A DNA stretch of 64,000 bases from Phoronis australis (Eukaryota; Animalia; Phoronida), in contig NMRA01000198.1 of assembly GCA_002633005.1 (NCBI GenBank), forward strand, positions 656,115-720,114. The letters run 5' to 3'. The notes under the pieces were generated by a model, which was not told the DNA's origin, did no database searches, and saw nothing but the letters and a program-made list of their open reading frames with translations. Shown here piece after piece: positions 11,801 through 39,397 of the stretch; within the stretch, counting starts at the first letter, position 1; every line of letters starts with the position of its first letter. Both the position numbers and the translations under genes were made by a program.

Positions 11801-14800
11801 TCCTCTTTGACTAAAGACATTTTCTAATAATATAACTAAAAAGTGAGCCCTGAATTCAATGAAAATATATAGGGACTTAGTCCTTAAGTTAGGTGTGTTG
11901 CATGAAAAGATCGTTATACATTTTCGATAATATTTAGAATTCAACGTCCAATTCACTGTTGATTTGTATCAGACCCAAAAATTGACGTAGTAATGAAACT
12001 AAAACACACAAGAAAGGACAATCAGTGTTTTCATAAGTCCACAAATACGCAGTAGATTTAGGGAACTTAGTTGAGTCCCTATTTGGGACTGTTTCATGCA
12101 ACCCGCCATAAGGCTCTAAAACCAAATTCTACACAAGGTGTACTTGACATGGAACATCTGACAGAGAACAGCTGACTGGGAAGAAGTATAAACATGTGTA
12201 TAAACATGATTGACAAGGAGCAAATTGACACCACAGCAACCATTTCTTTCAAAGGTTTGAGAGGTAGAGCAAGTTGCACTGATCAGTTGCTCTAGTGTCA
12301 ACTGTAGGTCTAAACACATACTGGGGCAAGGCAGATGTGATCATCACTCCGAACATACACAGACTATCTTTGTACAATTGACTTCCATGCTGATCCAGTG
12401 TACCATAATGTCAAGTAGAGCAACTTGTGCCATGGCAAGCGTGTCTCATTAATAAAAGGCGCAAGGTCCGTGTGCTACATGATGAATGCTTCAGACACCC
12501 TTCCACACAACTTGTGATTAGCCTTTTAAATGTAGAGATACTAATTAATTACTGGTGTTATGTATATGTTACAGTTCACAGTCTAGTCAGATTGTACTGT
12601 CTGGGGCAGGCAAGAAGTGCCCATTGCTCATCTTCAGAGCTGATGTCGTGTACAAAAGAGTGGCAGAGGTGAAGGCTATTGGAGGTATGGGTTGACTGCG
12701 GGGAAATACTTCCATTGAGGAGGTGTATGGGACTTGTTGCTCAGAGGGGATACTTTTTGCACAGTTAGTTTCTCTATGGAATGGGGTGTTTACCGACAAA
12801 TTATGTACAAATAGTGCCCCTTGCAAATTTTCGCTTTTTTCGAGTCCACTCTCTAAATTTATGGATATAATTCAAATTTTCCAGGTACACTCCTCTGTTG
12901 AAAATATTTAGTTGAGTACCCCTTTGTATTGACTGTTTGTTGTCTACCATAAAGGCTGGCTAAATGTAGAGTATCTAATGCTATTTCGTCATTTGTAGTG
13001 ATTTCAGGGGTCATTTTTACACAACAACCTGAAATAATTATCTTATGATTTAGATGTCTAACAGGGAAAATTAGTGTGACCCTGGCTTGATAATTAAGTT
13101 GGATCAGCTGGGATTTTTATTTTAGAGCTGTATTCATTTTCCGGACAAAAATGCTTTGCTTGCCTTAATTAAAATGAAGCTCCACAATGCTAGTGTGCGT
13201 GACCGATGACAGTATTGCCATTGAAAATTTTTGCCGTGTAATTTGATGTTCTGTCTATCTAATATGTAACTGTGGCACATTTTTGTTTCAGAAAAGTACC
13301 ACATGGCCTATAAACTAATCAAAACAGAGTGCAAGTTATTGCGAACTATCCTAAACGGTCATGGCTTTCATGAAGTAAGTTACTCCAAGGTTTATGATCT
13401 TGATTTTTAAACTTTTTTCCCATTTCGTAATGGATGTCTCTGTTTACCTAGTGGAAATATGTTTCATGACTGGAAGTATGATGTGACAATTTTGTTTCAT
13501 ACTTTGTTAAAGGTGCTGGTGGTAGTTAAAGCTTGAATTTCAGTGTAACTCATTAAAGACTTATAACTTATAGCCCGTACAATGCCTCTTTCAAAAGCCA
13601 TTGTTTTTGCTCATCTTTTGGAGTGGAACCCTTTGTTTTTGGTGTTTTAATATGGTTACACCATGTACCAAATGTCATTCATTGATGGCGTAAGAGGAAG
13701 GTGTACCACCGTTTGCTTGGTTTATTTGTGTTCGAGGTTTGCAGCTTGACCTAGTGCAGCAAAAGCACTCTTGATCCTAGATAAGCAATGATCATTTGGT
13801 TGTTATGATGTTGTTAATTTCCTGAGTAGGGTATAAAATTGTTGTTTGTCTCCCTTTGTATAGGCTCACCCCAACAGTAATGACTTCAACTTGATGTGGA
13901 CGGGGTCACACATCAAACCATACGTTCTGAGGGCATTGACCGAGTTCCAGAAGGTCAACCACTTCCCAAGGTCATATGAGATCACACGAAAAGACCGCCT
14001 CTATAAAAACATTCAACGAATGCAACAGACTAAGGTGTGTGCTGCTGCTCTCGTATTTAAATTGTAGGAAGGTTTTTAGTGAAAATGCTAACATACATGG
14101 CTCAATGTTGCAGGATATTGTGGTGATGTGTTCATGGCTCTCATTACCTGGTGGTTGTCCGGTAGTGCCTTCTATTCGACTTTGCTCCACACTGGAATTA
14201 AAGCGCTCTTTTTAAGCTTTTTCCACTTACGCATCTTGTTAAAACAAAAAAATGACACACCCATTGTATTTGCTCATACTAAAAATGACCAACTATAGAT
14301 CATTGCATTGTTAGCTTCTCAAGTTAAAAAAGCGGGAATGGGTCCATTTGATCAAAGGCTGTACACTCAGTGATAGCTAATATCATTATATTTTAAATTT
14401 AAATCGCGCACATATTTATGTCTCATGAAGTTGATCGTTGAATGTGAATACGGTCATTGGCTAATTTATGCCTTTTGGAATGTCTAGTTCTTTTGAACAG
14501 TACAAGATTATATTTTCAATGATTTGCCTATGGCTGTCATAGCTATGACATGATTTCTACCTTTGGTATATGGTGCCCCAAATATCCTGGCCTATTTGAA
14601 GGCTAATTATCAGTTTGGTGACGAGATGTTATGCAAACTTTCGCGTGTACATTTTTTCTAGATGGGGTTAGAGTGGTCAGATGGATGTTGATTGATGCTT
14701 CTTTCAATCTTAATTTCAGGGTATGAAGCACTTTGACTTCATCCCACAAAGTTTTATCACTCCAGCTGAGTTTCAGGATTTTTGCTGTAAGTATTGACTT

Positions 14801-17800
14801 GGCCATGTACTAAGAGTGTACTGTGTGGTGTGGTGTTTGGCCTACAAGGGATTTCTGAATCGGACTTTTTTCTGAGTAATTTGTGTTTTAGCTTCTACTA
14901 CTGTTAGCAACCAAGTGAGAACTGGTTTTGGAGTTATGGTGCGAGCTACTGTTTTCAATGTTTTTCTCTTAGAACTTTGTCTGCTTATGGTTGAACAGTT
15001 CTAAAATGCAATTCGCTCATTTTTTGTTCGAGTTACTCCGAGCTGGTCCAACTCATTACTTCAAGAGTGCATCAATTCTTTGTAGCGGAGTTCATGCGAA
15101 ACGGTGGAATGTGGATTGTAAAACCGTGCGCCATGGCTCGGGGGAAAGGCATATTCCTGATCAGTGATGTACATTTGATGTTACTGACTGCTTGCTTTAC
15201 AAACACATGTTGTGAACTGACAGACATTGTAATCATGTGTCGTCACTATCTGTTTATTTTCACGGCTGAATTTTTAGTGCTAAAGTTTCTATTCCTCCAA
15301 GGACTTTAGCCAGTTCCAGTCTTTGCAGTTCTAGCGTGTCAATACCACTTAAACAGTCCTTGATGTTGTACTGTTTGGTTGTAACTTACTTGATCCTGGA
15401 TGAGAAACACATCTATGTTGCGGGTGCGCAAGAAAAACTTTTATGCCGCAGATGCGCGAATCTTTTAGCAATCCCTAATATCGTTATATGATGAATTTAA
15501 CGTGACACACATGCCTGTCCCTGTTCAGACATGGTGTTTATGAAACTAACTGCTTGTTAGTATTTTGGTGTATGCTAGTGTAACCTTCTACTTCTGTTAG
15601 CGTTCCTGTTATTCCCAGTTACATGGGTAGAATATGTTTGAGAACTGAAAAATTGTGTCTGTGTCTGTACGCAGCAGAGCTCTTTGTTGAATGATTGTAG
15701 CATGACTGTATCGCAGCTGTACTCCTTGTGGAACTGAAGCTCAGTAGTGCTGAAAAGTGATGCATTTTACATAGATTTTAGTCTACTTAAGGGAATCTTT
15801 AACAGAAAAGATTGAGAAAATTATGAGGTTCTGTTTCGCTATGTAATTTATCAAGGTTTTTTAGGACCTTATTGACAAGTCTGTGCATGTGGTCAAATAT
15901 CTACAAAATTTTAACTTTAATACTAAAAGTATGTATTTTTTGAAAGCAGACATCCTGTACAATTTGATTTCTTTTTGCTAAATGTGCCGTTGATTTTGTC
16001 ACATTACTGTGTCTTTTATGAGTCCTATTACTGATAACATCTTATGCTAAACAGAAACGTTTGAAAAACATTTTCCAGCAGCATTTTGGATGACAGTGCA
16101 TAAAGCATAATGTCTGAAAGTTTCACATGAATCCAACCAGCCATTTCTGAGATGTAATGTTCCAAAAATGGCCTAATTTGTGAAATTTTCTAGCGTACTA
16201 TCTAATCTATGTGGAGGAAAGTTCGATTTCTTGGTTATCTAACAGCATCATCTTTGCAAAGCTTTTTTATAAAAAGCTTTTAAAAGAAGTGAGAGAGGCA
16301 CAAGAAAACAACACCTTTCCTTTTAAATTTTAGCAGAACTTTGAATATCTATCTAGTAATTACTCAGCTATTGGGGGACCACGATTTCTTACTTTCTGCA
16401 AAAAAATATCTGACGAAATTGAGCCCAGATCATTTACACTCGGTAAAATTATAAACTTGACTTTCCACTTTCTGCACTGAAGTAAATTGTAGGTCTGGCT
16501 CTGTAATACAGACAGAAATCCAGACTCAAGATGTCTCTTCGCTAAATCGCTCTACTTGGAATTAATGTTATTCTCAATTCTACTTTCCACATAATATTGC
16601 CAAAAAATTCAAGTGCGACATTGGATAAGGTTAACCCAGGCTCAAACTGGGGCTGAGTAGAGATTATGCCCGAGTTGGTGGTTGAATCTCTGGTCATGAG
16701 GTTTAGAAATTTGCGTCGTGCCTACAAGTTTTTATCCTGTACCTTTGTGGAGGGCTGGTTGTGATGGAGAGGTTGTGTAATGCTGTTCATGGTGTTATTG
16801 TTTTGTTGCATTTTGCGTTGCTAAGTTACATGTTATTCTTGTGTTGGTTGTAGCCGCTTTCCTTAAGGACAAAGGCCCGTGGATCGTGAAGCCTGTGGCT
16901 TCCTCTCGGGGAAGGGGCATATTTTTAGCTACGCATGTAAGTCTGCCTGCTGCTGTCAGTCAATAATGAAAAAGGCGGAGTTTCACTCCTTTGTTTGCCA
17001 ATCAACAAGAAGAAAAAATGATTTCCAATCTAGCACCAAGCCATCCAGAGTGTACACATGTCAAACTGTCCAGAGCATTTAATACAAAAGATTTCATATC
17101 AGTGCATGTCAGTAGCTGATATGGGAGTGAGTGATTCTCAAACCGAAAAAACTTGCGGTGGCAATTAACATGCATGGTTTGCATGCTTTGAATGGTGGCT
17201 TTTGTCTTCGTATATGTTTCATACGACGCGTGTTTTACCTTACAAGTTTTTTGTTTTATGGTTGGAACTAATAATCTTATAGTTAGGTTTCAATTATAAG
17301 GAATAACTAATATGCTTAAAATTGATAATTAACAATGGTTAATTGATTGAACAATATTGTGATCAGCTTGCTTGTATTTTCCATGATTTATTCCCTACTT
17401 TGTGTCGCACACCCTTCCAACTAATTGATCTTTTTCACTACAGCCCGATCAAGTGCCATTGGATGAAACCTTTATTGTGGCAAAGTACGTCAACAACCCA
17501 CTTACCATCGATGGTATGTAGTTGTCTTCTCTGTTAGCATCAGGCATTTGGTCATATTATGTAGTGCACGAAATTGTTGTCTAGCTAATGTGTTCAGTGA
17601 ATATTTAGAAAGTAAGGATGTTGAACGAAAATGATTCTGTCGGAAATTGTGAGTGCATATCGTTAATGAAAATCTTCAAAAGTTATTTTGTTAATTTGAC
17701 TGTACAAAAATTTGATGTAGGGCTCTGGAATCATTTTTACATTTTTCATTCCAAGGTGACGTGTATGCTGTACTGCAATAAAGTTATAAATGCATTTTCT

Positions 17801-20800
17801 GTGTTTTAGGTTTCAAGTTTGATCTACGCCTGTATGTAGCTGTGACTTCCTATGATCCACTGTGTATATACTTGTATGAGGAGGGTTTGACTAGGTATGC
17901 TAGTTTCTAGTGTCCAGTCTTTCATTTCACTTTTCTAGGTTAATTGAAACAAAAGCATGGAGATCTATTGTGCAAGTTTTTTGAAGTGTAAAAATGAATT
18001 AAAAATCATTCTGGCTTTCACGGAACTCTGTAACTATCTGTTGGCTGAGAACATAAGATTCTTCAGTGACTCGGGAGATAAATCAAGTGAAATCAATAAA
18101 CAGTCCTTGTTATTAGTTGTTTATGTAATGAAAAATACCGTTTTCTGAAAGCATTTTGGGCCAGAGAATTGTTAATCATTGGATGAATGAATTTTCTCTG
18201 GGTGCTGGCGTTCCATATTTCACGTAGAGTTAGTAACAGATATTGACTAAATCTTGTGAACACCTCAGATTTGCGACAGCGAAGTATGACCGAAACCCAC
18301 GACATATGAAGAACCAGTGCATGCATCTGACCAACTACAGCGTCAATAAACGCTCAGATAGTTTTGTGTCGTGAGCTGGCATTTTTGTTCGGAGTTCCTC
18401 ACATGTGCTATGTCATATTAGTTCTGTAAATATTCTAAACATTCATTGTCTGCACCAAATTCTTAATTGGGAAATGGATGTTTCTTAATATTACAATGAT
18501 TCAGTCTTGGTCACGTGTCATAAACTACTGAGCAGATGCAAATGTTTAGAGAACTAGTATTATTACATAGCGAGGTTAAATTAGAGATTTGAGTTTTATT
18601 TAATTCCTAACAGCTTTTTTCAGTTGTTGAAAAATAAAAAAAATTTTAAGCCCTTCCTTGAAATGGTTTTTGTTGTTTTTGATGTATTGGGCTACTCAGA
18701 TAGTTCCAGCGCTACTTTAGCTACAGAAAATGTGATTTAATCGCTGAAATGTAGGCTGGTCAAAAACTGTGCAACTAGTGTGAGAACGCAGAACAAAGAA
18801 CAAATTGTTTAAAGTAGTTGTCTTTAAATAGGATTGAACAGAACACTGTAAAAGGTTTTTGGTGGTGATGTAGACAGATATTTGCCAATGAGCCTAACTG
18901 ACCGTTTATCTGCCCAGTCATTGTTGTTCAAAATATATGATAGCAACTAATTTTTTTGTGTTAATATTCCTAGGCAGGCTTTAAAATCAGTGGTGAAAGT
19001 AGCGGAGGAATAATTTATCATTACCCTATCACCAAATGTCTTCCAATGAGGTCCTGTAAATTGCTACCTTGTTTCTTATGAGTGACTTGGACGTATGAAA
19101 GATGAAAATTCCGTAAGCTCGTTGGTTTTACGGCAATTTCCTTTTAGTCCTTGCTTGAAAGTTGTGTTGGTCATCTGAAAAAATACCGTGAACTTTTTAT
19201 TAGGAATTTCGCTTAGACTGAATGTGGTGGCTTTGTGATACTCCATTTCTGTACAGTAGGTAAAAAATATTAGGTTAGACAATCCCAGGTTTATAACAGT
19301 GTCTTCTATTTTGTCACCATGTCTCCTGTAGAAAGTTGGTAAACTACACTAACCTTCATGGAATGAATTTTTATAGCTAGTGCTGTTACGTTGTATTGAA
19401 ATAATGATTATTACCTTTCGGTGGCATAGTTTTTCTCGAGAGTCTAGCTTTCGAACTCATCCTCCCAGTGCCCTGACAAAGAGCCCAAAATGGGCTCAAA
19501 AACTAAGCGCTCGAGAAAAACTAGCCTGGAGAAAGGTTATAATTTCAATACACTAACCTTGTTTTGTTTTGTTCCATTGATTTCGTTTTCATAACTCAAC
19601 ATAATTAACCTTGTAGGTTTGCTACTCAGAAGTTTGAGAAGGGTAGTGCACGCAATATCAAGAACCACATGATGCATTTAACTAACTATAGTGTGAATAA
19701 GAAAAGTGCTGATTTTGTACAGTAAGTTCAAATACATGGAGACAAGTGTAATGAGCAGTATACTGCAGGTTCTGTTATTTTAGTCAAGAAATGGCCGTCG
19801 ATCAGTTTTCAGCAGGGATGTTGTTTCCTTATTTGAAGTTTCAGTAATTACAGAACTATCGCCTAATCTATTGATGTTGATCATTCATGAAATAGCACAA
19901 TTTTACATTTTACTTCTGTGTACTATATTAATTACTCTCATATCATTTTTAAATTAAAGAACTTGTTGATTCAACTTTTATCACTTGTTGCAATTTGAAG
20001 TTTGTAAAATACACTAAATTTTTTAAAATGACCATTCTTTGTCCAGGCATACCAGATGACCAAACTATGATTAAAATGTAACGGAATTGCAAAATTGGGC
20101 AATAGTCACATATGTGGTCCCCAGATTTATAGAACCAGTTTGATGTTCCTGATTCAGTTGAGAAAACTGGTTTTGAAGTGCAAACCCTGTTTCCCAAAAA
20201 TGTTTTGGTAACATTTCTGATGCTCTCAATTTTCAGAAATGATGACCCTAATGTAGAAGATTATGGCAATAAATGGTCTCTCGGTGCAATGTTACGATAC
20301 TTGAGGTCAGAAGGTCATGACACAACAGGTAACTAACGAAAACTTATTAACATTTCCACTTCATTTCCGTAATAATGTAATTATAGACAAATTCAATTTG
20401 ATAACTTAAGATATAGGTCTCCTGTTTTTATGGAAGTAAGCTGCATTTTTCTATTGATTTTGGTTATCAAGTTTTCTTTTGTATGGAAATAACATGATGT
20501 GGAAGTGTAATAGGATTTAGTGTTAAACATTCGATGAGTGTTGTGTAACTGTCTTATTTACTTTGAGACTCCAGTTGCAGTTCCCTGGAGCGGTCATCTT
20601 GTAGAGTAAGGTAGGGGGTGCAGTTAGGCTTCTCAATCCGAGGCGATATTTGTACCTGGCCGAAAAGGATAAATGTGACCCATGTTTTTACCAAGTGCTA
20701 AAATTGTACCCATTACTGAAAGAGGTCTTAAAACATGACCAATATTTACATCTCATCTGGAGAAAGCCACAAGATTATGTAATGCCTTTGTGGGAGCTGT

Positions 20801-23800
20801 CTGATTTCAGTTAAATGAAGGTTCTTAAGAATGTGGTGTAATGGCTTACTTATCATGTTTCAGCATTGATGATGAGGATTGAAGATGTCTTGACGAAGAC
20901 AATTATCTGCGCTGAGTTACCCATAGCAACAGCCTGTAAAATGTTCATGCCACACAAAGGAAACTGTTTTGGTAAGAAAACAGCACTATAAAAAGCCCAA
21001 GGCGACTCCATGATCAAAAGCGCCCCCTGTTGGTCTCCAGGTGATACAAGCGGATAGTTGTACTCTTGCAAGTCATGAAAGTCAAAGTATGATGTTTCTA
21101 CAAATCATGGTGTACTGAAGGTTTTTGATAACACCGAAGTTTCTTATTTGATGGCTTTCAAACGTCTTGCGTATTTTGTGTTGCGTGAGAGTCGGACTGA
21201 ACCTGCATCAGATGCAGTGCAAATAATTGTGTAGCTGACAGCCTTTATGGATGGATGAACTGTGATGCATGTAGCTTATGTTTAAATATGTGGTATTGAA
21301 TACTAAGTCATTCTTTTGGTATTAACATCTATGTGCCGTCTTGCAGAGGTGTACGGGTTTGACATACTGATAGACAGTAACATGCGGCCATGGATTTTGG
21401 AAGTGAATCTCTCTCCATCTTTGGCCTGGTAAGTTATGCTGCATTCCAATCAGAATCTCTAGACATATAGATTATTACAAGACGAACTTGTTGTTTCCAG
21501 TGAGATTGGAGAAATTATCACCTGGGGGTTGGTTGTCCGGAGGTTGATAAATTCTCCAAATCAAACAAGGGGTCTAGACACAAGAAATTATTGCCAAGGA
21601 TATATGGTAATGTGTCTACCTATCCCATATATTGAGCAACAGTCTATTAATCCCCAAAAAGTTAAATGAAAACATTCGAGTTTTGTGAACTTTACTATTA
21701 ATAAATTAAGTGCCCACATGCACAGTGTGGGGACGTGGTTCAAAAGTAGTGGTGGAATTTTTGAAGTTTTGGAAAAGTCCAGATAAAAATTTGTCGAGTT
21801 GAATCTCTCTGAATGTGGAGCGTTTTGAGTTTGACTGCTGCTGTAGTGATGAAGTATATTGATATCAAGATTTCCTTTTTGGGGATTGTGATTGAGTGAG
21901 ACCTTTCCATCTTATTTTGAAGAACATTTCAGATAGTTATTAATTCTAGCTTTGTAGTGTTTCTGAAGCAGAGTAATTATGTATGTGCAATAGGCTGTTT
22001 GAATTCTCTGATCAAGTTGTGTTACTGTTCATTTATAGCTCTAAACAGTAAATCAAAGTTGCTGTTAATGTTGCGGATAACGTTGTGGAAAATTATGCAT
22101 TGAAATGTTGCGACCCTGCTTTGGACCAGCGTGGCCAATTAAGTGTCTCACATTCATTTGTTTTCTTCTCTCCCATCGCGAGTCCTGACACTAGCAGCGC
22201 GGCATTGTACTACGAACATTCTAATCATATGAGGGACTCACCACCAACATTGTAGTAGTCAAAGTAGGACTGAATAAAGCATGAATCAAGATTGTGTGAT
22301 CATCACAGTATCAGTTACCTTGTCATTGTCGTTTTCCAGCGATGCCCCACTGGATCTGAAGATAAAGTCCCACATGCTGTCAGATTTGTTCTCTTTAACT
22401 GGTATGCTGTTACTTTCATTTAGTCTAAAATTAATTCATTTTCTAAGTGTGGAAACATTGCTTCCCTTACGTTGGTTGGTGTTTTCTGAAAAGAATGCAG
22501 TTCATGTCAGTGTGGCAAAGCAGTTTTTTTCTAGATCTTTCTTAGAAAAGTTACATCAGTTAGAAAACGTGTTATGATATGCGGTTTTTGAAAACGTTTC
22601 AGGTTTTCCTTGTCATGATCCAATGATGCGGCCCGCCAAAACCCCTAATAAAGTGCCTGACCCCAGGCTGACCTCGTCTAAACAGGTAAACGTTATGCGT
22701 GACCTACTTCGTGTTTTTGTGGAAAATCGCTGAAAAGTACTGGGATTGTGTTGTATTTCTAAAGTTATTGACTGTTTTCTTGAAGTACTGGGTTTTTGTG
22801 TTGTTATGTTATTAATGCTGATGGAATTATCCAACATTTCGTCCTTTCACTCATAATATTTTGACTTTGATCAGAAAGGGGTCTGATTTGTAAAGCTGCT
22901 TCGAATTTTTGCCGGTTGAACTTCTCTGGAATCTAGTAGGGTTTGCTTTGTGTCCCAACTTCAAAACTAGTCTTCTGCAATTTAGCTTGTACCCCGTTGG
23001 TCATACATAACTGTCTCATTTTCAGCGATCCTCATCTCTTGTTGTCTCACTCTTTCATTCTTTTCTGTGTTTTTGTATCATTTAGTCCAACCGTCAGCGT
23101 CCCTTCTCAGCGCCATCAAATTCTGGGGTTTGTACGCCATACAAGCACAGTGTCAGCAATTTAACAAATCACTACAATTTGTGAATTTACTGACTGACTG
23201 TATAGCAATGTTTCGGGGTCACATGACTGTACTTTCATAGATAAGTGTACAATATTTGTGTATTTATTCACAAATGTTATTGATTTCTTGTTTATTTAAA
23301 AAAAAACAACCATGCATGACTTGCGATCCGGCCCATATTTTACTTTAAACACTTTTTTCGGAAAACAATGATTATCCCTTTTGTTCAACGGCAAAGATTA
23401 ACTGTAGCATTTGTTGTTTTAGAGCATATTGTCATGTGACTTCCTCTTTGCTGCCCAGCAGTCTTCTGTATTCGGATATGCTTTTATTTCTTGGTCATCC
23501 ATTTTACATGCCGCACTGTATCACGCTAACCATGTAACCTTCCTTAGTCTGGTCTAATGTAGCATTTAGCGTAACCTGTGTTCGGATTGTGGTAAACCTT
23601 GCACATGTAAAAAAACTACAGCCACGAAATATCGGTGAATACAATATACATAACTGCAAAGTATTAGTTTGATGTGTTAATTGCCTTTAAATGGATTACG
23701 GTTGAATTATTCACTCCAATCAGTCATTGTATTCTGTTGAGTGAGAAGTGCATTTTGTAAATCACTTAATTTGTTATTCAAGTGACTAACTTCACAGACA

Positions 23801-26800
23801 AATTTGATGCACACCTTAACCCTCCATAAAATGTTTGGTGCACAAGAACTTATTACACGTACAATAATTTTTCACTATTGATGAGACTGTTGATGGGTCT
23901 CTGCCAAATGTAACCATGAATAATTGCAGACTCAAAATTTGCGTTCTCATGTGTTTCGAAATCCTGGAAATATTTCACGAAAAAGTGAAAGTGATTAATT
24001 ACGCTAACGGTTGTGTCCCTAATTACTCGTGCTGGCTGCTGGACTACCGGTATTTTTTTGTTGCTCCTATTGGCAGGCATTGATGAAAAAACAGATAGAG
24101 CAAAACTATATATGGGTCAACAGCAGTGGTTTTATGATAAGATCTGAATGTTAATTGAGTAAATAAGCTGTGGTAACTGGTGGAGAATAAAATTTCCCGG
24201 TATTAGTCCAGGCAAATTTGGTGGAATTCAGAGTACTGTATCAATTGTGTCCCAATGCAAAAATTCTTATTATTAAAATTTTAACGGTGAAAGTAACAAG
24301 ACTACCTCGTCCACTAAATTTCACATAGGAATGGAACATGCGTGACTTTCATGTAAAGTGTCGGGACCAGCAGTAAACGGAAATTAAGTGTTTACAAAAA
24401 CAATCACAACTTTGAAGTACATTTTATCTGTCCAAGCTTGGCAGCTGGGAATAAAAGTTGTTCTAGTTGTTCACGCGGTGGTTGGTATTGGGGAGAACTC
24501 AACAATTTTGTGTGCCTCAAGGAAAGCTTGTGTGCACTACAAGCATTGTGAATGATATGGCCCCGTTGTTGTAGAAATGCACACCAATTTGAAGGTTGTT
24601 CAACATGTAGTTATCCCTCATTTACCTGGTCCCTTTATCATTACTGAATTTAATTTAACTACTTCCTGTTTGCTACAATTGTTGTGAAATCAGTCTAACA
24701 CCTTGTTATTCTTCGTCAAAGCAGTGCTCTTGACATGTTTGCATATTTTCAATCGTTTATCCAGTTATAGTATAATGGTTCCTAGTCAACATTTCTTTTC
24801 CCCCTGACACACATTGCTTAGAATGATGTCTAAATCTCAGAATTGGTAATGAACTTTAGTAAAATTTAGCACATCTTCTGATCATTGCTTTTCATTGCCG
24901 TTGTTATCATCATTTTCAGCGCGCCTCTCGACCCTCGTCTGCCTCAGCACCCAAGAAGTTGGGTAAGATTGACGTGACGGGTCTATCTGGTGAAGAAGTA
25001 AGGATGATACGTCGTGTCAAGGAAGAGAACAGACGTCGGGGGGGCTTTGTGCGCATCTTTCCTACCAGGGATTCATGGGAGCTATATGGGTAAGATGGAT
25101 ATCAAGTTGCCCTGTGTTAGAATGCTCAGTCGGTCACGATTTTAAGCGGGCGTGTCACAATGTTAAATTCATAACTGATGCACTTTGAGATTTTAAAGTA
25201 TTATCATGCTCATCGGATCTTGAATCTTTACCAAAGTTATGCAACAAGGTGGCCATTTTGTTCTACTTTTTCACTAAGTATGTAGACCTGCAAGTGGTTT
25301 ATATTCATGGTGCTACATCGAACACAAAGACTGTTTCAATTTTGCTCTTCCTTTCAGCTCTTTCATGCAGTTCACCACCAACAATAACCTTCTCCTCCAC
25401 CAAAGGCTCTTTCCAGAGAAGTAAGTACAGCATTGTTTAGTTGTCCTTAATTAACACAGGGGTTGTGGTTCAGAAGCTGTTCTTTGTCAGTGTGTTTCAT
25501 TTGTTGTCTGTTGTTACGGTCTGTAAACATGAGTCACGTGAAATCCTAGATATATGTGTAACGGTTTTTTTGAATGAATGTTCAACATTGTTGTGTCAGT
25601 GAAATGTTCCAACTGTGTTCAGAGTTTCAAGCTGTATTTTTGACGACTTTTGGCTCAGAATGCAGAAGTTCTGATTGTCCTTTAATATTCTGTATGTTGT
25701 TGCTTCACCCGATTACAGGGTTTCTATATCCGTAGCTGGACTTATTCCCAGCCTACAGCTGTATCCTCCACCAATCATTAGTGCACATGCCTGCCTTCTA
25801 GGCACTGAAGTGACTATCTTATAAGAGATATTTGTCTTAACAATTAAGTTGCACACGTCTTCTTGTGTTTGAGTGTTCACTTAATGCCAGACATTTGTTG
25901 TAGCCACAGTGGGGACAAAACGGTGGTTGTCAACCCCAGACCCACCCCTAAGTGAGTCTAGATGTAGTGCCCTTAGCATGGACTTTGGGTTTGCATGCTG
26001 ATATACCCACTAACTGACTGTACACTTAAACAAGGTTGCATGGTAGCATTTAGCCAGCCAGCTAGCTGTATGAAGACTGTCGTCAAAATACAGCAAGGTA
26101 CCACTGTGTGTATTTCTTCCGTAGACCCCGAAATTGCACGCAGCCAGGGTAGTTCTGCTCGTCACCATGCCGTGAAACTTGTATCAAAATGTAAAGCTAA
26201 AGACCGGAGGGGGTGTATGCAAAATCTGGGAATCAACCGATACTCACCTTGCTCGTTACAGCCGTTTAAGTGAAAAACAATGCAATAAACGTCATTTTCT
26301 TGCGTAACTCTCCGCCTTTTCTAACAATGAAAAGTATGTCGTCGTTTTGAAAACAATACGCTCGTGTCACGCGCACGCGCCATTTCCTAAATTTTCGCGA
26401 CAACTTCGGAAAAGCAAAATTTGTTCTGAAATTCGGTTTTTCGGTATCGAAACTCTAAAAACTTGTAATGAAGTGAAACCAGTTCCAATAATTTGTTGTG
26501 ACATGTACGCAAGCTCGTGAAAGAACAGTAGTTGGTTGAAGAATCGGCGAAAAAAGAAACTGGCCAATAGGTGACACAATATTTCATGGCGCCGAAAGCC
26601 GTCGCTAAAGATCGCTCCACAACTTTAGCAGCAGAATAACGGTAGAACGCCATTTTTCCAACACTGTTAAATAATTTTTTTTACTCAAGGAAGACTGTAG
26701 TTTTTAACGACACTAATTTTGTGTTAGATTTTATCTTACCACTTTTTTACCCACATCGGTGCAAAGCTGTATATTTATATACAGCTTTGTACCAAGACTA

Positions 26801-29800
26801 GGTAGCATTAAGCATTTCCTTGTCTGTCTTGGAAATAGGACGTACCAACTAATGTCATTCAGAATGTGTAAATTGCTGAGATGGCATGTAACGACATGTT
26901 ATGTCCCAGTATTTCAAGGTAGCAACCATTTTATTCGAAGCGTGTTTACACCGACAAAAGAATATGGATTTGTTTGTCAGTGTAATTATTTCCTTGCTGA
27001 GCCTCATTAAACTAGCCATTCTATCCAATGTAACATGGGGTTGGTGATGGAAGTGTTTTGTGTGGTCCCATTTACATTTACTGTTGAAACCCTGCTACAA
27101 CTGGTTTTCTATACACACTAATTAACCTGTATGCTGATAATATGGACAGGGTCTCCACACTTTGCTGAGGATGTTTTCCTTTAAGTTCTGCTGGCTTCCT
27201 GCCTCCATCCTTCCCATAAGTTGAACTATTGCTTTAGCATGCCAAAGGTTTGCAAGCTGATGTCACTCTTTCTTTATCAAAGGCCCGGGATATTATCTTT
27301 TTATACAAATTCAAACTTAAAATTATTGTAAATTTTTTCTGTTCTTCTTTGGTAAGGGACTATTACTCTGTGCTTGCATATGTTATGGTTTACGTATACG
27401 ACTGTGTAATCCTATTTTACATTTGATGACCTCAGCATTGAAGTCATAAGTTCGAGGTTGAGCTCAGAATTTTTTACTCGAAATCTCTTGTATTTACTTT
27501 TGAGTTTGTAGCTCGAATTTAGGGGTCATCAAGTGCAAATTTGGAGTACACAGTGGTTACTGTAATTTGGAGTACACAGTGGTTACTGTAATTTGGAGTA
27601 CACAGTGGTTACTGTAATTTGGAGTACACAGTGGTTACTGTAATTTGGAGTACACAGTGGTTACTGTAATTTGGAGTACACAGTGGTTACTGTAATCTGT
27701 AATAGTTTTGTGTTGAAACGGAGCTGGAAATGACAAATATTTAATTTCAAGTTCAATTTCGAGTAGAAGATTAGATCCTGGGTGTAGATCTTTCCAGAAC
27801 AAAACTTTATTATTTCAGTCATTTGCAGGCTTAAAAGAGATACGAATTTAAGTTTTGGAAGGAATTCCTTACTGCTGCATTTCAATTTTGATTGAATAAT
27901 TAGCATGTGCCAGTGATATGTCTTTTGCAATTGATGAGAGTTTTTCATACTGTAATTCTGTTGTCCTCCCAACAATGTGAGTTTTTAAGGACTTAGTTGT
28001 TTTTACCCATTGTGTATTGACATTTGTTAGATCAATTAAGTATCGTTTATCGTGACTGTAGCAATTGTGGTAGATATATCAACTCACTCAGTATTCTGTA
28101 AACTACAAAACACTATGGTTCACCATTTCATAAGCCAGTCTATGAGTCACCTGTTGTGATGCTTCTGTGCCTCATCCATGAAAACATTTACAATGTTCGC
28201 TTGGCTCTTAGGTTAGGTTAGTTCACACTTCACTTATAACTCAGCCTATGAAGACTGTGTTCTCAGAGACAATGGTTTCAGAGTTGTCCTCTACTTCAGT
28301 AAGAGGTAACCAACGCGGCACATACAAAAAAGTTTTTTAAGAAAAGGCTTAATGCGTGTTTACATGATAACATGACTGTATGGTTGACTTACTAGCCAGC
28401 CATTTTTCCCTTATCTCTTGTCTATTGCTCACAACATTATAGGATTATTAGAGAGGGAAGTCAGCTAACCTTATAATTTTTGGTCAGTTTGGCATATTTT
28501 ACTAAATACTCCAAAGGGTATTTGGAACCTTTTCAGTGGTTTTCTATAAAATGAAATAAATAAAAGTATGCAGTTCTTCAAACCAGAAGAGGTGATGCTG
28601 ATCTATGTCTGACAATGTCCACCATCCTGGGTAAGTTCCGTACTCTCACTTTTCAGTTCCAATAACTCACTGAGAGGTTCGCAACTTTTCAGTCAAAGAC
28701 AAGTTACATATAATATTTACTTTGACTTGAGCTATGATGCCTGAAACAGGTATTGAGACTGATACAGTTGGTTAGTCAGACACAGACTGTTTGAATTATG
28801 CGACTTTAACACTGCATTGCACTGACGGTTTGGAGAATTGTTAATATGATGGTTTTTGTAAAAATCAACAAAAAAGATTTTGAAAAATATGCCAAATTGA
28901 CTAAAACATAGGTAGAATTTCCCCTTTAATCATGATCTTTGTTGGACCTGTGCTAGCACAATGAACTTCTAGTTCGTGGAGAAATTTGTTACAACTTCCT
29001 TTCAAAACTAATAAAAAAAATATTTGCAGGTGGTCTGTACCAGACGTGCGCAGGCCGCACATGTGGGCCCATTGCACTGATCCCCTGGAACTATTTTTGT
29101 GCTTTATTAATATATAGTTAAAACCGAGCTGAGGAGCTAGAAACCTGACTGAAGGGTCTAGCAGTGTGACCCAGTAGGACTCGAACCCACGACCTCCAGT
29201 AAAGTAGGCGGGCACCTATCACACTAGGCCACATTGCCTCCTCTCCTTTAAAAACTAGATCACTGCTCAGTGCACAAATAGTACCTTGATCCACCAGATG
29301 TAGGCTGTAGTCTTATGCATGCAAATGTCTATCAACGTAATATTTAAGTCAAGTTATTGAAGTGTTAGTTTCCCCGAAACAGATGTGGTCATTTTTCAGT
29401 ACATTCTCTAGTTCTGAAATCTCTACATTCCAGTAATTGTCAAATTAATATGAATTAACAAATTACCTCATCATTTGTTTAGTCTGTGGTTCATGTACAA
29501 GTGATATGATTCCAAACAAAGGTCATACCCTAGACTTATTCAACTCTTTATTTCAGATACCATTACAGCGGAAAAGTTCAAAGTAATTACACTAACGTCA
29601 ATGCCAAGATCAAGTGAGTGTTTAAGCGCACGTGACTTGTCAAGTGCAGTACACAGACTTTGACTGCGCAGTATTATACGGGTGGATTTAGGGGGTAGGG
29701 CGGCACACCGACTTGTCCACGACCCTCTGCTGTGGGCACGAGCAAAAAACATTCCCATTTTGGGACTGGCGCAAATGTTGCGCCTTCAGAAATTGTGGTC

Positions 29801-32800
29801 GAGCCGCACTCGTGACATCATGTATCAATTAGTGTTGTAAATCGGATTATGTGTTGTGGCACAACAATGACCTAGTGAATATGACCCATGTGTTGTTGTT
29901 TCAGGTCCTGGACCATTCACATCCACAGTGCCCCATACCCCACCTTGACATCGGGGGCTGGGCCAGAGGTAGGCTAGTTGTCTTATTGCACGTATTTGGG
30001 GTCTTGCTTTTTAGTTTGTGCATCATTGATGTATATCAGATGAAAAGAATGCTAAAGGTATTTCGAGACCATTTGCTGTTCCGTGTTTTATGTATTCTTA
30101 CTAGTTTAAGTCACATTTACTTAGTTTCAGGAAATATGTGAAGTGACAATCAATTTAAAATTCAATGAGTTACTCATGATTAGAATTTTTCTAATATGTC
30201 TTTTACATATTTTTAAGATGTTTTTAAATCTGCTGTAACCCTGCTTTCTGTTAAAAACTGATATAGGCCACCTACCACTGTAGTACAAAAGTGGCTTCAC
30301 CTTGCCCCTTACGTCTAATTTGTATATAGCCCTGAGTCCATGACCACTTTTGCAATGGTTGATAGTCTTAAATCATTATTTTTACAGGTGGCAGGTTTAA
30401 TGCAGATTTAACTATAATCTTTCCCCTCATTGAACACACTTCCACTTAGTTGTCATAGCCAGGATGCAAGCTGTTACAATGATGATGAAACATTCATGGG
30501 GCGACTAAAAAAGAATTTAAAATAGTAAAACTTATAGTAAAACTAAAACGACGAGCGTCGGTAGCACACCCTTGACAAAGAGCGCATCGCTCGAAACGTG
30601 GGGATATTTTAATATATTTTAGTACCGATGCTCGTCATTTTAGTTTTGCTAGTTTTACTATTCTATATTTTTGTTCATCGGTAACTGCACGGCATTCCAA
30701 CTTCTACTTGATAAAAAAGAATTCTTGAAATTTGAACTTAAAGTCTTTGGTTGATCTCATGATTTGTGAATTAAAGCGATGGTGTTAGTGTATGACTAAT
30801 GTTACTATTATCTTTGAACATTCAAACTTAGAAATTGTCAATTGTTTTTTTTCAGTTGGTTGTTGTAATTTCTTATAAGATAACTGTCAACATTCGTAAA
30901 TTTTCGTCTCATTTTTCTTTAATTAGCCTTTTAACTATCCTATTTCAATCCTCAATACCTGAAAAATCTCGCTTCATGCCTTGAAACTGTGCATGGTTGT
31001 TAACACTTATGTGACTGCCATTGTTTGTGAAAATTGTGTGTCTTTTTTACTTTGAACATGATTTTCCAAAAAATTGAACTTCAGGAAACTTACTATAGAC
31101 AAAGTGATAAACTATACTGTCCACACATAGGGAACTCTCTCACATTTTTTATTTACCCTCAAACTTCAGATATCAGCCATTTAATTTCCTTTTGAAAAAA
31201 ATACCCTGACTCTTCCTTTTGATGGCCAATGTCTCCATTATTCGAAGGAAAATAAAAGTTATGAGAAACTCCTTAGCTGTACCATATGGAATAAGTATGC
31301 AACGTTTCATGCAAATCAACCGTCACAATCAGGAGAAATCACTTTTCAAAACTGCTAAAATGTTGAAAATCAACATGCTCAAAACTGTCGTCATAGATTT
31401 GTTAGGAATTAAAATTTAGCATAAGTCTTTCTTAACAACTCACACATTTGGCACATCAATAATGCATTTAAAGAAACGTTATATATAGCTATGAAAACAG
31501 GTATATGATTTTTTACATAATGTTTCATATTGCATTTTTGAAGAAAAGTCTGTAAGTGGGGAAAGATAGCAAGTTTACCACATCAGTTCTGGTAACCAGC
31601 TTTTGTTGCCTTCTCTCAAACTTAAAAGCATTATCTCAGTTTGAAATGTTTACCTCCAAAGGTGCACCGCACATACTATTGCTTTAATAAAAAAACCCCA
31701 ACACTCGTTAAAGATGAATTAGTGTCCATAACGAACTGACTGTGTATGAGGGACATGTCATTACAGTTGGTACCCCACCAGGATGTTAAATGCAGAAAGG
31801 TAGTATTACCAAAGAGTTACTGGAATGTTGACCCGTTGCACATATCCCGCCCGCACTCACGCGTTTACCTTGGACAGATCCCCACTACCACTCACATGAT
31901 GTCTGAAAGTTATTTGATTTCAGTGTTACTGTGACATTGTGAAGTCACTTCTGATCGTAACTTAAAATTACACCCTCATATCTTCCTTCCATTGAGTGAC
32001 TACTGCTCTATGTTAGTTGCTGTGTCAGGCGGCCTGTTGCCCAATAAGAGACTTGGCCCCCATAGGATGAGCGTGCAGATGAGAAACTTCTACCATCGAT
32101 GTCAAGGTGGAAGTTGTACAAAAAATCTCGCTTTGCTCATTAGTGATGCGAAAAATGCCTTTGACGATGTGTAGAGAATAGTTGCAATACAGTTCATGAA
32201 TATGTTGTCTGCAGCTCATTGGCATTGTGGAGAACAAGAAGGAGCATCCCAGCAAGGAGATTATACGTCTGCTGTCTGCAGCTGTCACCTATATCACCAG
32301 GCGTTGTCTGTTTGACAAAGTAGTAATGAACTGCATTGTACGTCCTTCTTGACACAGCTTTTGTGCACTCCGGTACTTGTACTGATGTGCGCTGAGCCTG
32401 AATGTCTTGTTTCTGGGAAATTTGCTATTGGGCAGATGCCTGTCTTGACACAGATATCCATGTCTTTGATGTTTCTGTTTTTTTGTATGGATTTGTTGAC
32501 ATTTTGAAAATTTAAAAACTGCACGACGTCATGTGGGAGGTTTGCATGGATATCCAGGGGGGTTTGTCACATGATGCTTCCCATAATGCTTCTGGCAAGC
32601 GGATGGTACGTGCTCTGCATGGTTGGTGGTATTGGTGGCAGACATGCTCTAGATCTAGACTGTCACAGTTTTGTTGTATGTTATTCTAGCCAGCAGTAGT
32701 GCATGATCTCGGTGAAAAACTGCGCACACAGGCCATTATGGCTAAACAACAGCAGGTGATGGTGTTTTTAACCCAACCCAATATTTCTCTGTGTTTGTTG

Positions 32801-35800
32801 CTTGAAATTGGTGGTGTCTTGATAGTCGCCTGCCTTATTTTTCTTTTGTAGTTCGACTTCAATCTGTAGATTTACCATGATGCTCTGCTAAGAGAGCCTT
32901 TCTTTTAAACTGCAATACACGCAGTTGTACTCTCAGTATTTGATTTGAAAATTTATGTTCTAATACCTCCTCAAATTTAAAAGTGCTGAGCATATTTTTT
33001 AACTTGGTGCGCAGGCATGATATTGTTCATTTAAGAAACCTCATTGATGCTCTATTGAGTGCTGTATTGGTGGTTTAAAAATAGCCAAGTTCGAAGTCAG
33101 ATAAAATAAAAGTGAAATGCCGAAAATAACGACTATGAGTTCCAGTACAGCTTAAGTATACATAGAAAACAAGAAGATGGTGTTAATTTGCCTTACTCTA
33201 CAACCCAATTCTCTGGGGCATGTTACAAAATTAAATCAAATCATTATGTGTGAAACAGGATGTCCTAAGGTAATTGTCATATTACCAAAACAGCGCTCAA
33301 TATGACTAAATCAAGTACCAAACTTTAGTTAGTGTCTTCTGGGTAAAGAATGTTTTTCATGAAAAAACAGAGTGATTTTTAAGTCAAATGTTCATTATTT
33401 TCAAAAATTGGTTCTGCCCATTTTTGATTATCGACTAAGTGTTAGTAAGAATGTTCATGATAATGCGTCGCATTGTTCAGTATTAAATTTCATATTTGTG
33501 CGTTTTAACGGTTGAATTATTTGTAAAACGCTTTGAATGTCTTTATAACACATTCCAACTGCAGGTCTTTGTGACTTTCAACTTGATTTTGCCCTGTTTG
33601 GATCTCGATAGTTATGAAATCCCCACGTTCTTTGTCGTCTCGGACTGGCATGACTCACGTCCACTGCTTCTTGGAATTCCCTTTCTTACCTTTCCTAATT
33701 TGTGACTTGAAGCTGCATTTTGCACCGTTAAGCTGTCAACCGAAGGGATTTGGGGTTCAAAAAACATCAACAAACTCATCTGATCTTGAATTGTAGCCAA
33801 ATGAGATGGCAACTCAAATCACTGGCAATTCGTACATGTGCCATTTTTGAATCGCAATTTTAGGGTTGATCAACCCCAATAAAATGTGAAGCGTTTTCTC
33901 GAGTCTCTGATGGTTTTTGATGTTTTTGTTGGTAATGGAAATACAATCGTATCTCAGTAAGGTATATAATGAGACCGGTTTTATGAGAGTAAGAGGATTA
34001 ATTATTTTTTATGTAACCAGTGAAACGAAGCAAAATGCATCTTTAAGTATGCATTCAAATATAAGCAATACCTAATTGTTCTTCTTTGCAGGTATTGGCT
34101 TTGAGTCTACCTCCTAAGATGTATCTCACGGTGTTTTCAACTTTTATTTCTATCTGTTTTATTGAAATTTTTAGGAATTAAGTTTTTGTAAATATTGGCT
34201 TTAATTTTGCCCAGAACATTTCTTTTTTCCATTAAAAGATGTTTCGTATGATATGAGAATCAAATTTTGCTGGCAACCAGTTGGTACAACATGAAAGGAT
34301 TTGTACTTGTAATCTGTTGCAAGTAGTTATTTTATCAAAAATATCAGACTTTTGTTGTTTAAGATACACGTGATGTAACCTAGCAATAAGAATACATCTG
34401 GAATTGGTAAAAAGCGTTATCAACCCACTTTTTACCAATTGAAAAAAGCTGACAAAAATTCCGAATTATAAACAATTTCAAGTGAGCTGAATAAAAATTC
34501 AAAGCATAGTATCTCATTCCTTTTCAAGGAATTAACATTTTTTATAAACCAAATCTTTTTGGAATGAAATTAAGCTTGTTATCTTTAAAATCTGTGATTT
34601 AGTACCCATTTACTTTTGATGTATAAATGAATAGCCAAAACCATTATTTGTATTTTGCATTTCAGATGGAACAATACATGCGTAATGCATTCAGTCGTTC
34701 AGAGCAATATGAGCGCAAGCTGAGAATCCATGGTAGCACGAAACCACGCGCCCGCCACTCTAAGAATAAGCCAACGTCGAGTGGTCCTCAGCCAAAAGGT
34801 GGCACTAAGTTTGTTTTGTTAAGATATGTGACTTTGAAGGGTTATTGTCACTTATTGAGCAGATGAAGTCTTGCTAGAAAAATTGGTAATCTTGGAATAT
34901 GTACAAACAACGTTTTATGATTAGTGTTGCCATACGGATATATTAATTTTAAGTAGTGTTGCGTTGAACTTTTTATTTATGCTTAAAACTGGTGCATGTT
35001 GAAAGAAATTGCATTTTTATGCGCTCACATATATTTACATGGTCGCAATTTGTCATCAACTCTATCTGGGCGTCAGTCGTCTGCTGCTGTTTCTTCAAAA
35101 TCCCTTTGAGGATCTTCATGAAAATTGGCAGATGGAGCTGGGTACAGGCGACAACGATGACTTTCAGATGGATCTGACTACCTCTGTGCCCCCTAGTGGC
35201 ATTTTTAGCACTTTATGTTTGCCTCTGTATCTTCGGTGTTCCTGAATGGATTTTCATGAAATTTGAGAAATAGGCTGGGAAGAGGACACGTCTTTTTATT
35301 TTGAGATGGGTTTGACGTATTCTGTGTGCCATGTTGTGGCCATTTTTATAGTGCTAATAAACACATGCAAAAGCTGACGGCTTGAGGACGCATTTCAACC
35401 CTCTGCACTGTTTCTGTGTTGTTGGTGTTAGGACCCTGTAACATCAAGGTACCTCATTACGATTTTGAAAAGATGAGAAAAAGAGTAGGTGTTGTATATC
35501 TTGAGTGGAAACTTTGTGGTCAGGGCTGCATTTGAGGCAGGTTTTGTCCAAAGTTGCCCTGTACAGCCATTGTTCAGATCGTCTCGTGTAGATGCTAAAT
35601 AGACTGGGTAATTGTGGGAACAATTTTGCTGAAACGGGCCGCTTCCCGACTGTGTTATTTCTCCCTGAATCTGTACATGTTGGGATGATTATTCCCTGTT
35701 CTCTCACAAGTCATCTGTAATTTCAAAGTAACAATACACGTGTGCATCCTATTCAAAACGAGTCCTTTGAAATGGCTGTGTGTGAATTGTTCTTATAACT

Positions 35801-38800
35801 GGACCTTTATTCCTCAGCCACATTCCGTGGTTCGTTGGTGCAAGGTGTAACGTCACTACCAAGCAATCGACCAGCTGAGGAAGAGGAACACGATGTGAAA
35901 CCTCCACCGGCGCCACCTGCAAAACCTGTCAAATTGACGGCTAGTAAAGAAAATGATAAACAACTGCCGTCAGCGACGTCTGCTTCAACACCTGCTGCAG
36001 TGTCTGCCACTTCAACTGGCATCTCTGCTGCCGGCGTGGCCGGCGGAGAGAAACTTGTTGAGGTAGAGACGGATAAACCATCGATGGAGGCTAAGGTCCA
36101 AAAGAGGCCGCTGTCGCCCAAGATGGATGTTGTGGGATGTCTAAATAGAGGAGGCACTCTCAGGTGTGTGTGTGTGTGTGTGTATGGCGGAGTTTGGAGT
36201 CATGTCTCTGTGCATGTCACCTAATCTTATGGAATAGATCTAATTTAAGCTTATGAAATGTAAATTGGTTTAACTTAAAGAATGCATCAGTTATTCATGC
36301 AGACTACTTTTTATTGAAGTATGTGGTTGAGATACACTAGTTTTCTCCAAGTTTGTCAAATTAAACAACAATTTCCTCTAACTTTTTATTATCCAAACTA
36401 AAAATGAAATTTGCCATGGTCTGAATTTTAGTCACCCAAAATATATCTTGTGCTTTCCAGCTTTCTCAGAAGAGACTCAGCGCAGTATAGACATTCATTT
36501 CAAGTAATGGTCAACGGGCCCACATTATGAACATACTAGTATAATAAAAAGAGACTACAAGATAATCTAAACCCAAATCAATCAAATAGTTTGAAGTACT
36601 ATTGAAAAGTGTTATTAAAACATTTTACATTTCACAATGTTGTATTTCCATGGCATTTCTAAATCTTCTGTTCTTTTACCTTATAGCAAGATACAAGCGC
36701 GTACAGCCTTTGCCATGTACTTATCAAGAGTGCAGTCACGTCTGATGACAGAGACTAATACATCAGAGTTCAGTGATGTGGAAAGTGCCAATGAACAAAT
36801 GGTGAGTGAGTTACCTAAGCTAAATCTTAGCTCGGGACCAGTTTCGGTTAATTGTCAAATTTTCTCCTCATTGAAAACCAGCTGTAGTTCAACTGTAAGC
36901 TTAGTCCCTATGTTTTCCTTTGGTGTAATTGTTTTGTCGTATATGTTATTCAACCTTTTTACTGTTTGCTTTTTTGACGCAGAATGTTGCGCATTAAAAC
37001 TGTGTATAATTTTCCTAGGACTAAAAATCAATGCGTTAAAAGCAGTCGTTAAAAGTAGCGAAAAAACAAAGAGTTTGTTGGTGCTGAAACTGATCAATAA
37101 GTCACAGAAGGCCCAATGCCATCATATCAGGAGTTTATGCAAACAGGTGCCTGCAAATATAGATTGATGGGCCTGCTTTCAGAACCCCAATTAAAACTGT
37201 GTATGGTTAGTAGAGTTTCCCATGAACTGTGTTAGTGAGTGTCAAACAATGAAAAACGAGAAAAGTCTGATGTGCTGACTAGTTTACAAACAGACTGATG
37301 AAATATTAGTTAGATTCTAGTAAAAGAGGGTTTGTGGGAAGGAACTTCTTTATTCCACCACCCTCATTTTTGTTTTATTTCCTAACCCATTGCCCAAATT
37401 TTTTTTTAAATCAGTTTGGAGAGCAGACACCCATATTAATTTAAAATTATACTTGGTCACTTAAATGACTTGAGTTTGCGTATGTTTTGCTTGTCGTTCC
37501 AAACAAAATTTGAACTTTTAGATGCTGTCACTTGTGTTTCATATTATACGTAAGAATTATTCTCCTCTCCTTTACAGATTTTACTGGAACAGCCCTAAAT
37601 ACAATCATTAATTTTGGGTTACTTATAAATCTTGGAAAACCATGTGGTAAAAAGTGTAATCAACCACATTGTCCTGGCTAAATGAGAACAATTTTTGTGT
37701 AATTTATGACTTAAAGTTTCCTTAATGAGACGAATGAACTATTAGTAAGTACAAGAGTGCTGAATGCACACAGACCTCAAAATATTAGTTTCAAAAGTAA
37801 CGTCATGTGTCCCTGAGAAATGGAATTAATACCTTTACAGCATTGCGTTTTGAAATTGTTGTGTTGTTATTTACGTGTTATAGAAAAAGACACCAATGAA
37901 TGTATCAGAGGTACAGTAATTGATATCGTGCACGTTTTCATTAAACAAGAAGTTTGTTTTCACTGGACTTGGATGTCCTGAGTGCCAGCCTGCCTTTATT
38001 TAAAGTAGTTTTTGTTCTGGTTAATGTTTTGCACCCATTTCTCTTGTAGTTGAAAGTTAGGTAAATGATTTTTTGAAGTATTTTTCAATTCTTAGCCGAC
38101 TTACTTTGATTTTTTCAAGGATGTCTTGTTTTGTTTTTATTAAAAATGCTGTTAACTTGTAATGGATTATCAACTTTTGCTGATAATTATTGCTGTAGCG
38201 TGTGTAATATTGGTTATATTGAAGGCTACATCACAAGGTTAAAAATACTGTTTTTATAGTAGTTTTGAGGTAAAATAGAAGAATGAGTCAGTAATACTTA
38301 AGGCTACACCCTTGAGTTCCATTCTGACCACAATGTGACCACAATATGACCACGATATTACCACAATATGACCACGACCACGATATGACCACGATATGAC
38401 CATGGAAGTTAAAAACTTTTAAAACTTGCCTTATTTCGTGACGCGAGTTTTTGTGACGATCGCATGCCAAAATTTGCTAAAAATTAGAAACTCACCATTG
38501 TGTGAAACGGGATTTCCCAAGGTAATAATCACATTGCCTAAACTACACTCAATATAACTTTTACATTAAAAAAGAGGCATTGAATTTGATTGATGCTTAT
38601 CAAAAGGTTTCTTTACTTTTTCTATATGGTGTGAAAAAAATTAGTCTTGTCAACTTGCAGTAGTTTTGTTAACTGCTTCCAAATGAAATAGTCTTCATTT
38701 ATGCTTTTTCTTATGGAATGTTTACATCTGAAAGTGGTCAACATTTGGCTATGATTGCAGTTAAACTCTACTCACTCAAATGTGATCCTAAATTTGAGCT

Positions 38801-39357: not shown

Positions 39358-39397
<40 letters not shown>

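Follow-up and report, generated by a model that had tools for sequence, protein, structure and literature searches.

The 64,000-nucleotide stretch of Phoronis australis contig NMRA01000198.1 analysed here (positions 656,115 to 720,114; hereafter the window) contains a plus-strand TTLL5 gene, whose catalytic core includes two pairs of adjacent homologous exons for which RNA reads point to either-or splicing. Named TTLL5 orthologues are collinear with this gene along its whole length, including the C-terminal region. The exon at 13864-14034 (P1, 57 residues) is 91% identical to the TTLL5 of both Lingula and Lineus; among the top 120 matches recovered with it in a protein search, every one that carries a family name is TTLL5. 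These best matches and the collinear homology bear out the identification as TTLL5 made in an earlier sequence-only reading of the window. In a quick-method tree of 20 rows, the gene falls within the spiralians other than molluscs, where no sister to it has strong support. The coding regions and the exons of the catalytic core are:

near 8715-8837, plus strand: likely first TTLL5 coding exon, a candidate read by eye
12573..46616, plus strand: TTLL5 coding exons, located by tblastn with seven orthologues
14720..14786, plus strand: constitutive exon K1, 67 nt, phase 1 at its end
15086..15168, plus strand: alternative exon A, 83 nt, with a derived β5-β6 ATP/acceptor loop; predominant in the sampled RNA
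16854..16936, plus strand: alternative exon B, 83 nt, with the ancestral TTLL5-type loop; no splice joint listed
17444..17513, plus strand: constitutive exon K2
17810..17894, plus strand: constitutive exon K3, which contains the equivalent of R219 and ends two bases into the R241-equivalent codon
18269..18370, plus strand: alternative exon C, 102 nt, encoding the HLTNYS loop segment at a length typical of TTLL5
19617..19721, plus strand: alternative exon D, 105 nt, encoding the HLTNYS loop segment with one extra residue
20237..20328, plus strand: constitutive exon K4

Examination of the catalytic core gives the order K1-[A or B]-K2-K3-[C or D]-K4, with every exon preceded by AG and followed by GT; order, coordinates, phases, splice sites and open frames all match those of the sequence-only reading. 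The members of each pair share their phases, are separated by introns of 1685 nt (A-B) and 1246 nt (C-D), and give open frames in all four joins (AC, AD, BC and BD). Inclusion of both A and B, or of neither, results in a premature stop; inclusion of both C and D, or of neither, keeps the frame. All four alternative exons match the Pfam TTL profile (PF03133), A and B at profile positions ~63-87 (22.8 bits for A, 20.1 bits for B) and C and D at 143-171. Hidden Markov models (HMMs) built at the level of exons recovered exactly two copies of each cassette, ruling out a third, and a possible K1 remnant upstream of A was rejected (p=0.74). A haplotype or assembly artefact was likewise rejected for both pairs, the copies being too divergent and bridged by RNA joints. 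As adjacent homologues with shared phases and the boundaries of an ancestral single exon, both pairs are tandem exon duplications.

RNA from three raw-read runs (X1-X3, one study) and one contig set under the same species label was mapped on positions 13800-21000, with 18-19% of each raw run being read, and a joint was counted as listed only with at least 3 reads from 2 starts in a run. The joint leading into K1 (14034>14720) has 4 reads. K1 is joined to A (14786>15086) by 9 reads (7 in X1 and 2 in X2), and A to K2 with B skipped (15168>17444) by 7 (4 and 3); K2>K3 follows with 4 reads in X1, 2 in X2 and 1 in X3. At the second site, K3>C (17894>18269) has 6 reads (1 in X1 and 5 in X2), K3>D, skipping C (17894>19617), has 7 (5 and 2), and C>K4, skipping D (18370>20237), has 9 (4 and 5). 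On all listed cassette joints the reads run in the same direction. These five cassette junctions had all been predicted from the letters; the other three predicted ones, K1>B (14786>16854), B>K2 (16936>17444) and D>K4 (19721>20237), are unlisted in all four runs at the same threshold. No A>B, C>D or double-skip joint is listed either (runs X1-X4, fewer than 3 reads from 2 starts per run). The validation rule for mutually exclusive exons (MXEs), as given in a human catalogue (PMC5740500), combines two bridging reads with no joining read. C/D conforms to this in full, with 7 K3>D and 9 C>K4 bridging reads and no C>D joining read listed, and A/B in two of its three parts, with 7 A>K2 reads and no A>B joint, K1>B being unlisted. 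Either-or splicing, proposed earlier from sequence, is thus seen in the reads as bridging joints without joining ones.

A, C and D are therefore used in the RNA sampled, and the use of B is a candidate. Depth in the B bin is 0.83 in X1 and 0 in X2 and X3; the ~200 read bases behind the X1 value may be unspliced RNA. Because X2 has zero depth at B yet joints to both C and D, A would be spliced with either, so that the two choices appear uncoupled and strict coupling is unlikely. Of the four isoforms foreseen in the sequence-only reading, A-C and A-D are accordingly supported; the two with B lack a listed joint. A difference in C/D use between samples (5:1 vs 2:5) was considered and rejected (Fisher p=0.10). 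Downstream, the joint from K4 to the next exon (20328>20864) has 17 reads (15 in X2 and 2 in X1); the 15 in X2, against 2-5 for upstream joints in that run, could reflect a 3' bias or transcription that begins internally. At ~16090-16170 and 20130-20195 lie short pieces of a repeat family, dispersed and transcribed, that draw many partly matching reads from elsewhere.

To place the cassettes in the enzyme, residues were mapped by hand onto an alignment with mouse TTLL6, with roles taken from published work on TTLL6 (10.1101/2020.06.07.139295). A and B encode the β5-β6 loop (TTLL6 175-183), which binds the ATP phosphates and the acceptor glutamate. C and D complete the R241-equivalent codon begun in K3 (Arg either way) and encode the 261-265 loop with T263, N264, Y265 and S266. 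This mapping supports the earlier proposal that both cassettes encode active-site loops, and the equivalents of K174, R241, T263, N264, Y265 and S266 are retained in every splice form. Across TTLL6 176-182, A departs from B by V>C, S>M, S>A and R>K, with K174, P175, the Arg at 180, G181 and G183 unchanged; the differences between C and D fall in the segment around the 261-265 lid loop. In the same TTLL6 work, Q180 and H362 separate elongases from initiases and TTLL5 is listed among the initiases, an assignment with which PMC10335831 and PMC12366701 concur. Given that A and B share an Arg at the Q180 position, the mark of an initiase, and that the H362 position lies outside both cassettes, no switch between initiation and elongation is predicted. 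The change of chain preference suggested in the sequence-only reading hence finds no support, C179, a position at which A and B do differ, being reported as not critical in that work. A swap may instead alter loop closure and contact with the acceptor peptide, and hence kinetics or site preference.

A and B are identical at 44 of 83 nucleotides and 14 of 27 amino acids, and C and D at 64 of 105 and 20 of 33. The proportions of synonymous (pS) and nonsynonymous (pN) differences, as uncorrected Nei-Gojobori values with pS at or above saturation, are 0.88 and 0.35 for A/B and 0.78 and 0.28 for C/D. The likeness of the exon pairs exceeds that of all 200 shuffles (p=0.005, the floor of the test), and the flanking introns are no more alike than shuffles in four comparisons (p 0.12-0.72). 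One of five tests of a constitutive exon against an intron, K2 against the A-B intron, gave p=0.035, which is not significant among 11 tests. The heavy divergence of synonymous sites and the unrelatedness of the flanking introns are confirmed by these results, and pN well below pS in both pairs supports the earlier view of old duplications under constraint. The three variants that the RNA shows in A, C and D are without exception synonymous; among four listed for constitutive exons, one (V>I) changes the protein and the rest are synonymous.

When compared with 84 unique orthologous TTLL5 segments, B has no foreign residue (0/27) and reaches 25/27 identity, whereas A has 9 of 27 residues foreign to them and is 11-16/27 identical. 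Four of these nine sit in the ATP/acceptor loop, and of 10 columns that do not vary in these segments, which range from corals to vertebrates, A alters 3, in addition to V/I>C. All nine also occur at the corresponding column among 50 other TTLL loops, which come from metagenome loci and were not chosen for likeness to A; the 3.5 expected is a naive background that takes no account of conservative changes (R>K, S>A). By these comparisons B is the ancestral TTLL5 exon. Since the foreign residues of A recur in other TTLL loops and its Pfam TTL score matches that of B, A has the look of a remodelled exon, not of a decayed one. Neither C nor D is clearly the closer to orthologues (17-23/33 identical), and in the columns that were set against 94 orthologous segments each adds one residue that is new or rare.

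A HMMER search with A, extended by 3 intron-encoded residues, against 1.84 billion representatives returned 13 matches, of which 7 are TTLL proteins and the others unrelated or repeat proteins. Five of the matches have Q-type (elongase-signature) loops, which from their motifs we take to be TTLL1/TTLL9-like; these are 16/27 identical to A and 10-12/27 to B, and carry 4-5 of A's nine foreign residues. The best TTLL match is TTLL5-like (17/27). A structure search with exon A gave weak matches to TTL and TTLL3 (E 0.4-0.5), and a word-based protein search with it gave no candidate, a weak test given that HMMER did find TTLL matches. Because the Q-type matches were selected for likeness to A, and A has the exact length and phases of B, we prefer an origin of A by tandem duplication, probably followed by drift toward residues used elsewhere in the TTLL family, over capture from a paralogue.

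The stored set of 484 proteins yields 450 loop matches, of which 447 have the sequence [VI]ASSRGRG and the other three come from one wasp protein; an A-type loop is absent from all of them. This wasp protein model (P0166) carries three TTLL loop motifs in one chain and may be a genuine multi-domain TTLL or a fusion of adjacent genes. Among members of 30 clusters (up to 15 listed for each), neither site shows an alternative exon; each motif is held by 217 of 247 proteins, which within a cluster differ by no more than a few substitutions, and a separate pattern search agreed for the groups that it caught. In Babylonia and Nucella alike, TTLL5 falls into two distinct clusters (P0188/P0224 and P0193/P0226) with differing core sequences, which suggests that the whole gene was duplicated in these snails. 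An exon-by-exon examination covered 15 of 79 metagenome loci: five with introns on both sides of the loop exon showed no second copy of it, and eight that span K3-K4 with at least one intron each showed no second C/D copy. Conservation of the pairs in other species, which the sequence-only reading had proposed to look for, was thus sought in isoforms and loci and not found. We provisionally regard the pairs as lineage-restricted; annotations can miss such exons, and the comparison spans no genome of a close relative. The profile for one homologue search rested on an alignment with 10 residues of C and 5 of A misplaced.

The spacing of C is common to 444 of 445 proteins, and the length of D is seen in one of the 445, the bryozoan P0230, and in metagenome loci L006, L067 and L077. 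P0230 is the best match of L067 and L077; the best matches of L006 are coral proteins. In L077 (7634-7821) and L067 (58-243), K3 and a D-length segment are continuous within a single exon, without an intervening intron, and a C copy is absent; L077 has a single 83-nt loop exon with the phases of A/B. The extra residue of D was rejected as proof of a duplication before the bryozoan split, the same length being found in L006 and protist loci. An old C/D duplication with later loss in bryozoans is possible.

The two pairs probably differ in how exclusivity is enforced. At A/B it is likely backed by nonsense-mediated decay, given that products with both exons or neither are frameshifted. C/D cannot rely on decay because the corresponding products stay in frame, and competition between weak acceptors under trans-acting control is the likely basis there. 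The four alternative acceptors score -5.9 to 0.2, against a leave-one-out range of 3.6-11.4 for 8 constitutive acceptors of the TTLL5 gene, on a small matrix from which 7 of 15 exons were dropped for off-by-one coordinates; among donors, B scores 7.8 (consensus) and D 6.7 (strong). Steric hindrance between MXEs operates where less than about 50 nt separates the upstream donor from the downstream branch point, and is unlikely here because the introns between the copies measure 1685 and 1246 nt.

With respect to known systems, the gene resembles other TTLL5 glutamylases (initiase class TTLL2/4/5/12) in whole-gene orthology and in the retained catalytic residues and initiase Arg, and differs in that the stored orthologues are without alternative exons at these sites and without the A loop. 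The pairs resemble tandem MXEs, such as those of PKM, CACNA1C, SLC25A3 and Dscam, examples given in PMC5740500, in being adjacent homologous exons of similar length and phase that encode the same structural element, in showing bridging reads without joining reads, and, for A/B, in the frameshift backing. They differ in that two separate pairs lie in one catalytic domain of a tubulin-code writer, and in that the exclusivity of C/D has no evident cause in steric hindrance, frameshift or docking sites. An engineered TTLL6 initiase (C179A/Q180R/H362I; PDB 6vzq series), described in 10.1101/2020.06.07.139295, shares with exon A the Ala-Arg at 179-180; however, B with its Ser-Arg is also of the initiase type, so that A versus B is not an elongase-to-initiase switch.

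In light of these observations, we propose, with a probability of roughly 0.55, that the two tandem exon pairs are spliced either-or and that the resulting enzymes remain branch-initiating glutamylases, as predicted from the mapping, and likely differ in kinetics or acceptor-peptide preference. A would remodel the loop that closes over the ATP phosphates and acceptor glutamate. Because B keeps a perfect TTLL5 loop while its synonymous sites are saturated against A, we infer that B is used in tissues or stages outside those sampled. Several points weigh against this proposal: X3 and X4 are nearly uninformative, counts are low (6-9 reads per listed cassette joint), neither B joint nor D>K4 is listed, and in X1 4 reads (2 starts) run past the D donor into the intron, with a stop directly after. 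In addition, no other species examined has a second copy, no docking/selector pairing stands out among the longest 25 of 225 inverted repeats, the conservative changes in A soften the contrast of nine with 3.5, and in the TTLL6 study not only is C179 not critical, but adding R182I plus S367H gave no better initiation. Under a neutral alternative, the exons are true MXEs with biochemically equivalent isoforms and each copy is kept as the one spliced in some cell type. The retention of all catalytic residues and the initiase Arg, the presence of the non-critical positions C179 and R182 among those that differ, and the single new or rare residue added by each of C and D fit it; the alteration by A of TTLL5 columns otherwise invariant suggests that the loop sequence matters, and we regard equivalence as possible at well below even odds. 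At the other extreme, one gene might write two tubulin-code marks, with splicing swapping the phosphate/acceptor loop and, independently, the lid segment. A would then be a natural hybrid loop, with the initiase Arg in a frame resembling Q-type TTLLs, and each isoform might have tails or sites of its own to glutamylate, on alpha or beta tubulin or on substrates other than tubulin, depending on the cell type; we consider this a tentative extension. A stronger claim, that splicing switches the enzyme between chain initiation and elongation, could appeal to the position of A exactly on the loop with the published determinant and to the likeness of its other residues to Q-type loops, but the shared Arg and the location of H362 leave it scarcely credible.

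The remaining alternatives concern individual exons. That A has replaced B, leaving an intact relic no longer spliced in, would explain the unlisted B joints in four runs and the zero depth in X2 and X3. It is improbable in view of the lack of foreign residues in B, its consensus donor and its frame kept open despite saturated synonymous sites, with the ~200 read bases in X1 a further point, if not unspliced RNA. For D, an unproductive role is conceivable, whereby the intron after it is retained or slowly removed and the in-frame stop right after D makes it a regulatory off-switch. The unlisted D>K4 joint, the 4 X1 reads across the D donor and 4 others (2 starts) in the intron just before K4 would agree with this, but unspliced reads are present in other introns too, 5 D>K4 joints were expected with a 0.12 chance of fewer than 3, and D combines a strong donor with a pN lower than its pS in the comparison with C and with an RNA variant that is synonymous; such a role is very unlikely. 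Equally doubtful is the capture or gene conversion of A from a paralogous Q-type TTLL gene with the initiase Arg gained afterwards. The five Q-type loops nearer to A speak for it, but they were chosen for that likeness with a query that included intron-encoded residues, the best TTLL match is TTLL5-like, A keeps the TTLL5 residues V173, A177 and R180, and its length and phases are those of B, as in the single exon of other spiralian loci.

No report of duplicated catalytic exons in any TTLL gene was found in the literature searched, most subscription papers being outside its scope; the sequence-only reading had likewise presented such pairs as not known in TTLL5. The term TTLL was not found in the main text or 10 text supplements of PMC5740500, of which the long files are possibly incomplete. 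Differential TTLL5 splicing has been reported in cichlid brain, with the event type not stated in the accessible part of that source. The locus thus combines a known splicing mechanism, tandem-duplicated MXEs, with an enzyme family in which we found no report of it, and its major form has an unusual active-site loop, a picture largely supported by RNA. How TTLL enzymes select their tails and sites, apart from the residue that separates initiation from elongation, is partly understood, and single active-site exons swapped on an otherwise identical enzyme would offer a natural experiment on this, with the limit that the pairs are known from one non-model invertebrate. They would also show that splicing, besides gene duplication, can diversify the writers of the tubulin code.

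Elsewhere in the TTLL5 gene, a near-identical ~1.2 kb tandem copy (41640-42831 and 42833-44025; 1169/1193 identical), which includes two TTLL5 exons and is joined by a single N, likely represents two haplotypes assembled side by side, or possibly a very recent duplication. An inverted-repeat element with arms at 5664-5850 and 7330-7487 lies upstream of the gene, and a transposon-like insert occupies 10300-11020 in the first intron (both by eye). A neighbouring gene at ~52500-53453 (plus strand), unrelated to the TTLL5 finding, has an open frame of more than 300 residues, at the N-terminus of which lies a RING finger (Pfam zf-C3HC4); the regions after it appear by eye to be rich in cysteine and histidine and to resemble coiled coils.

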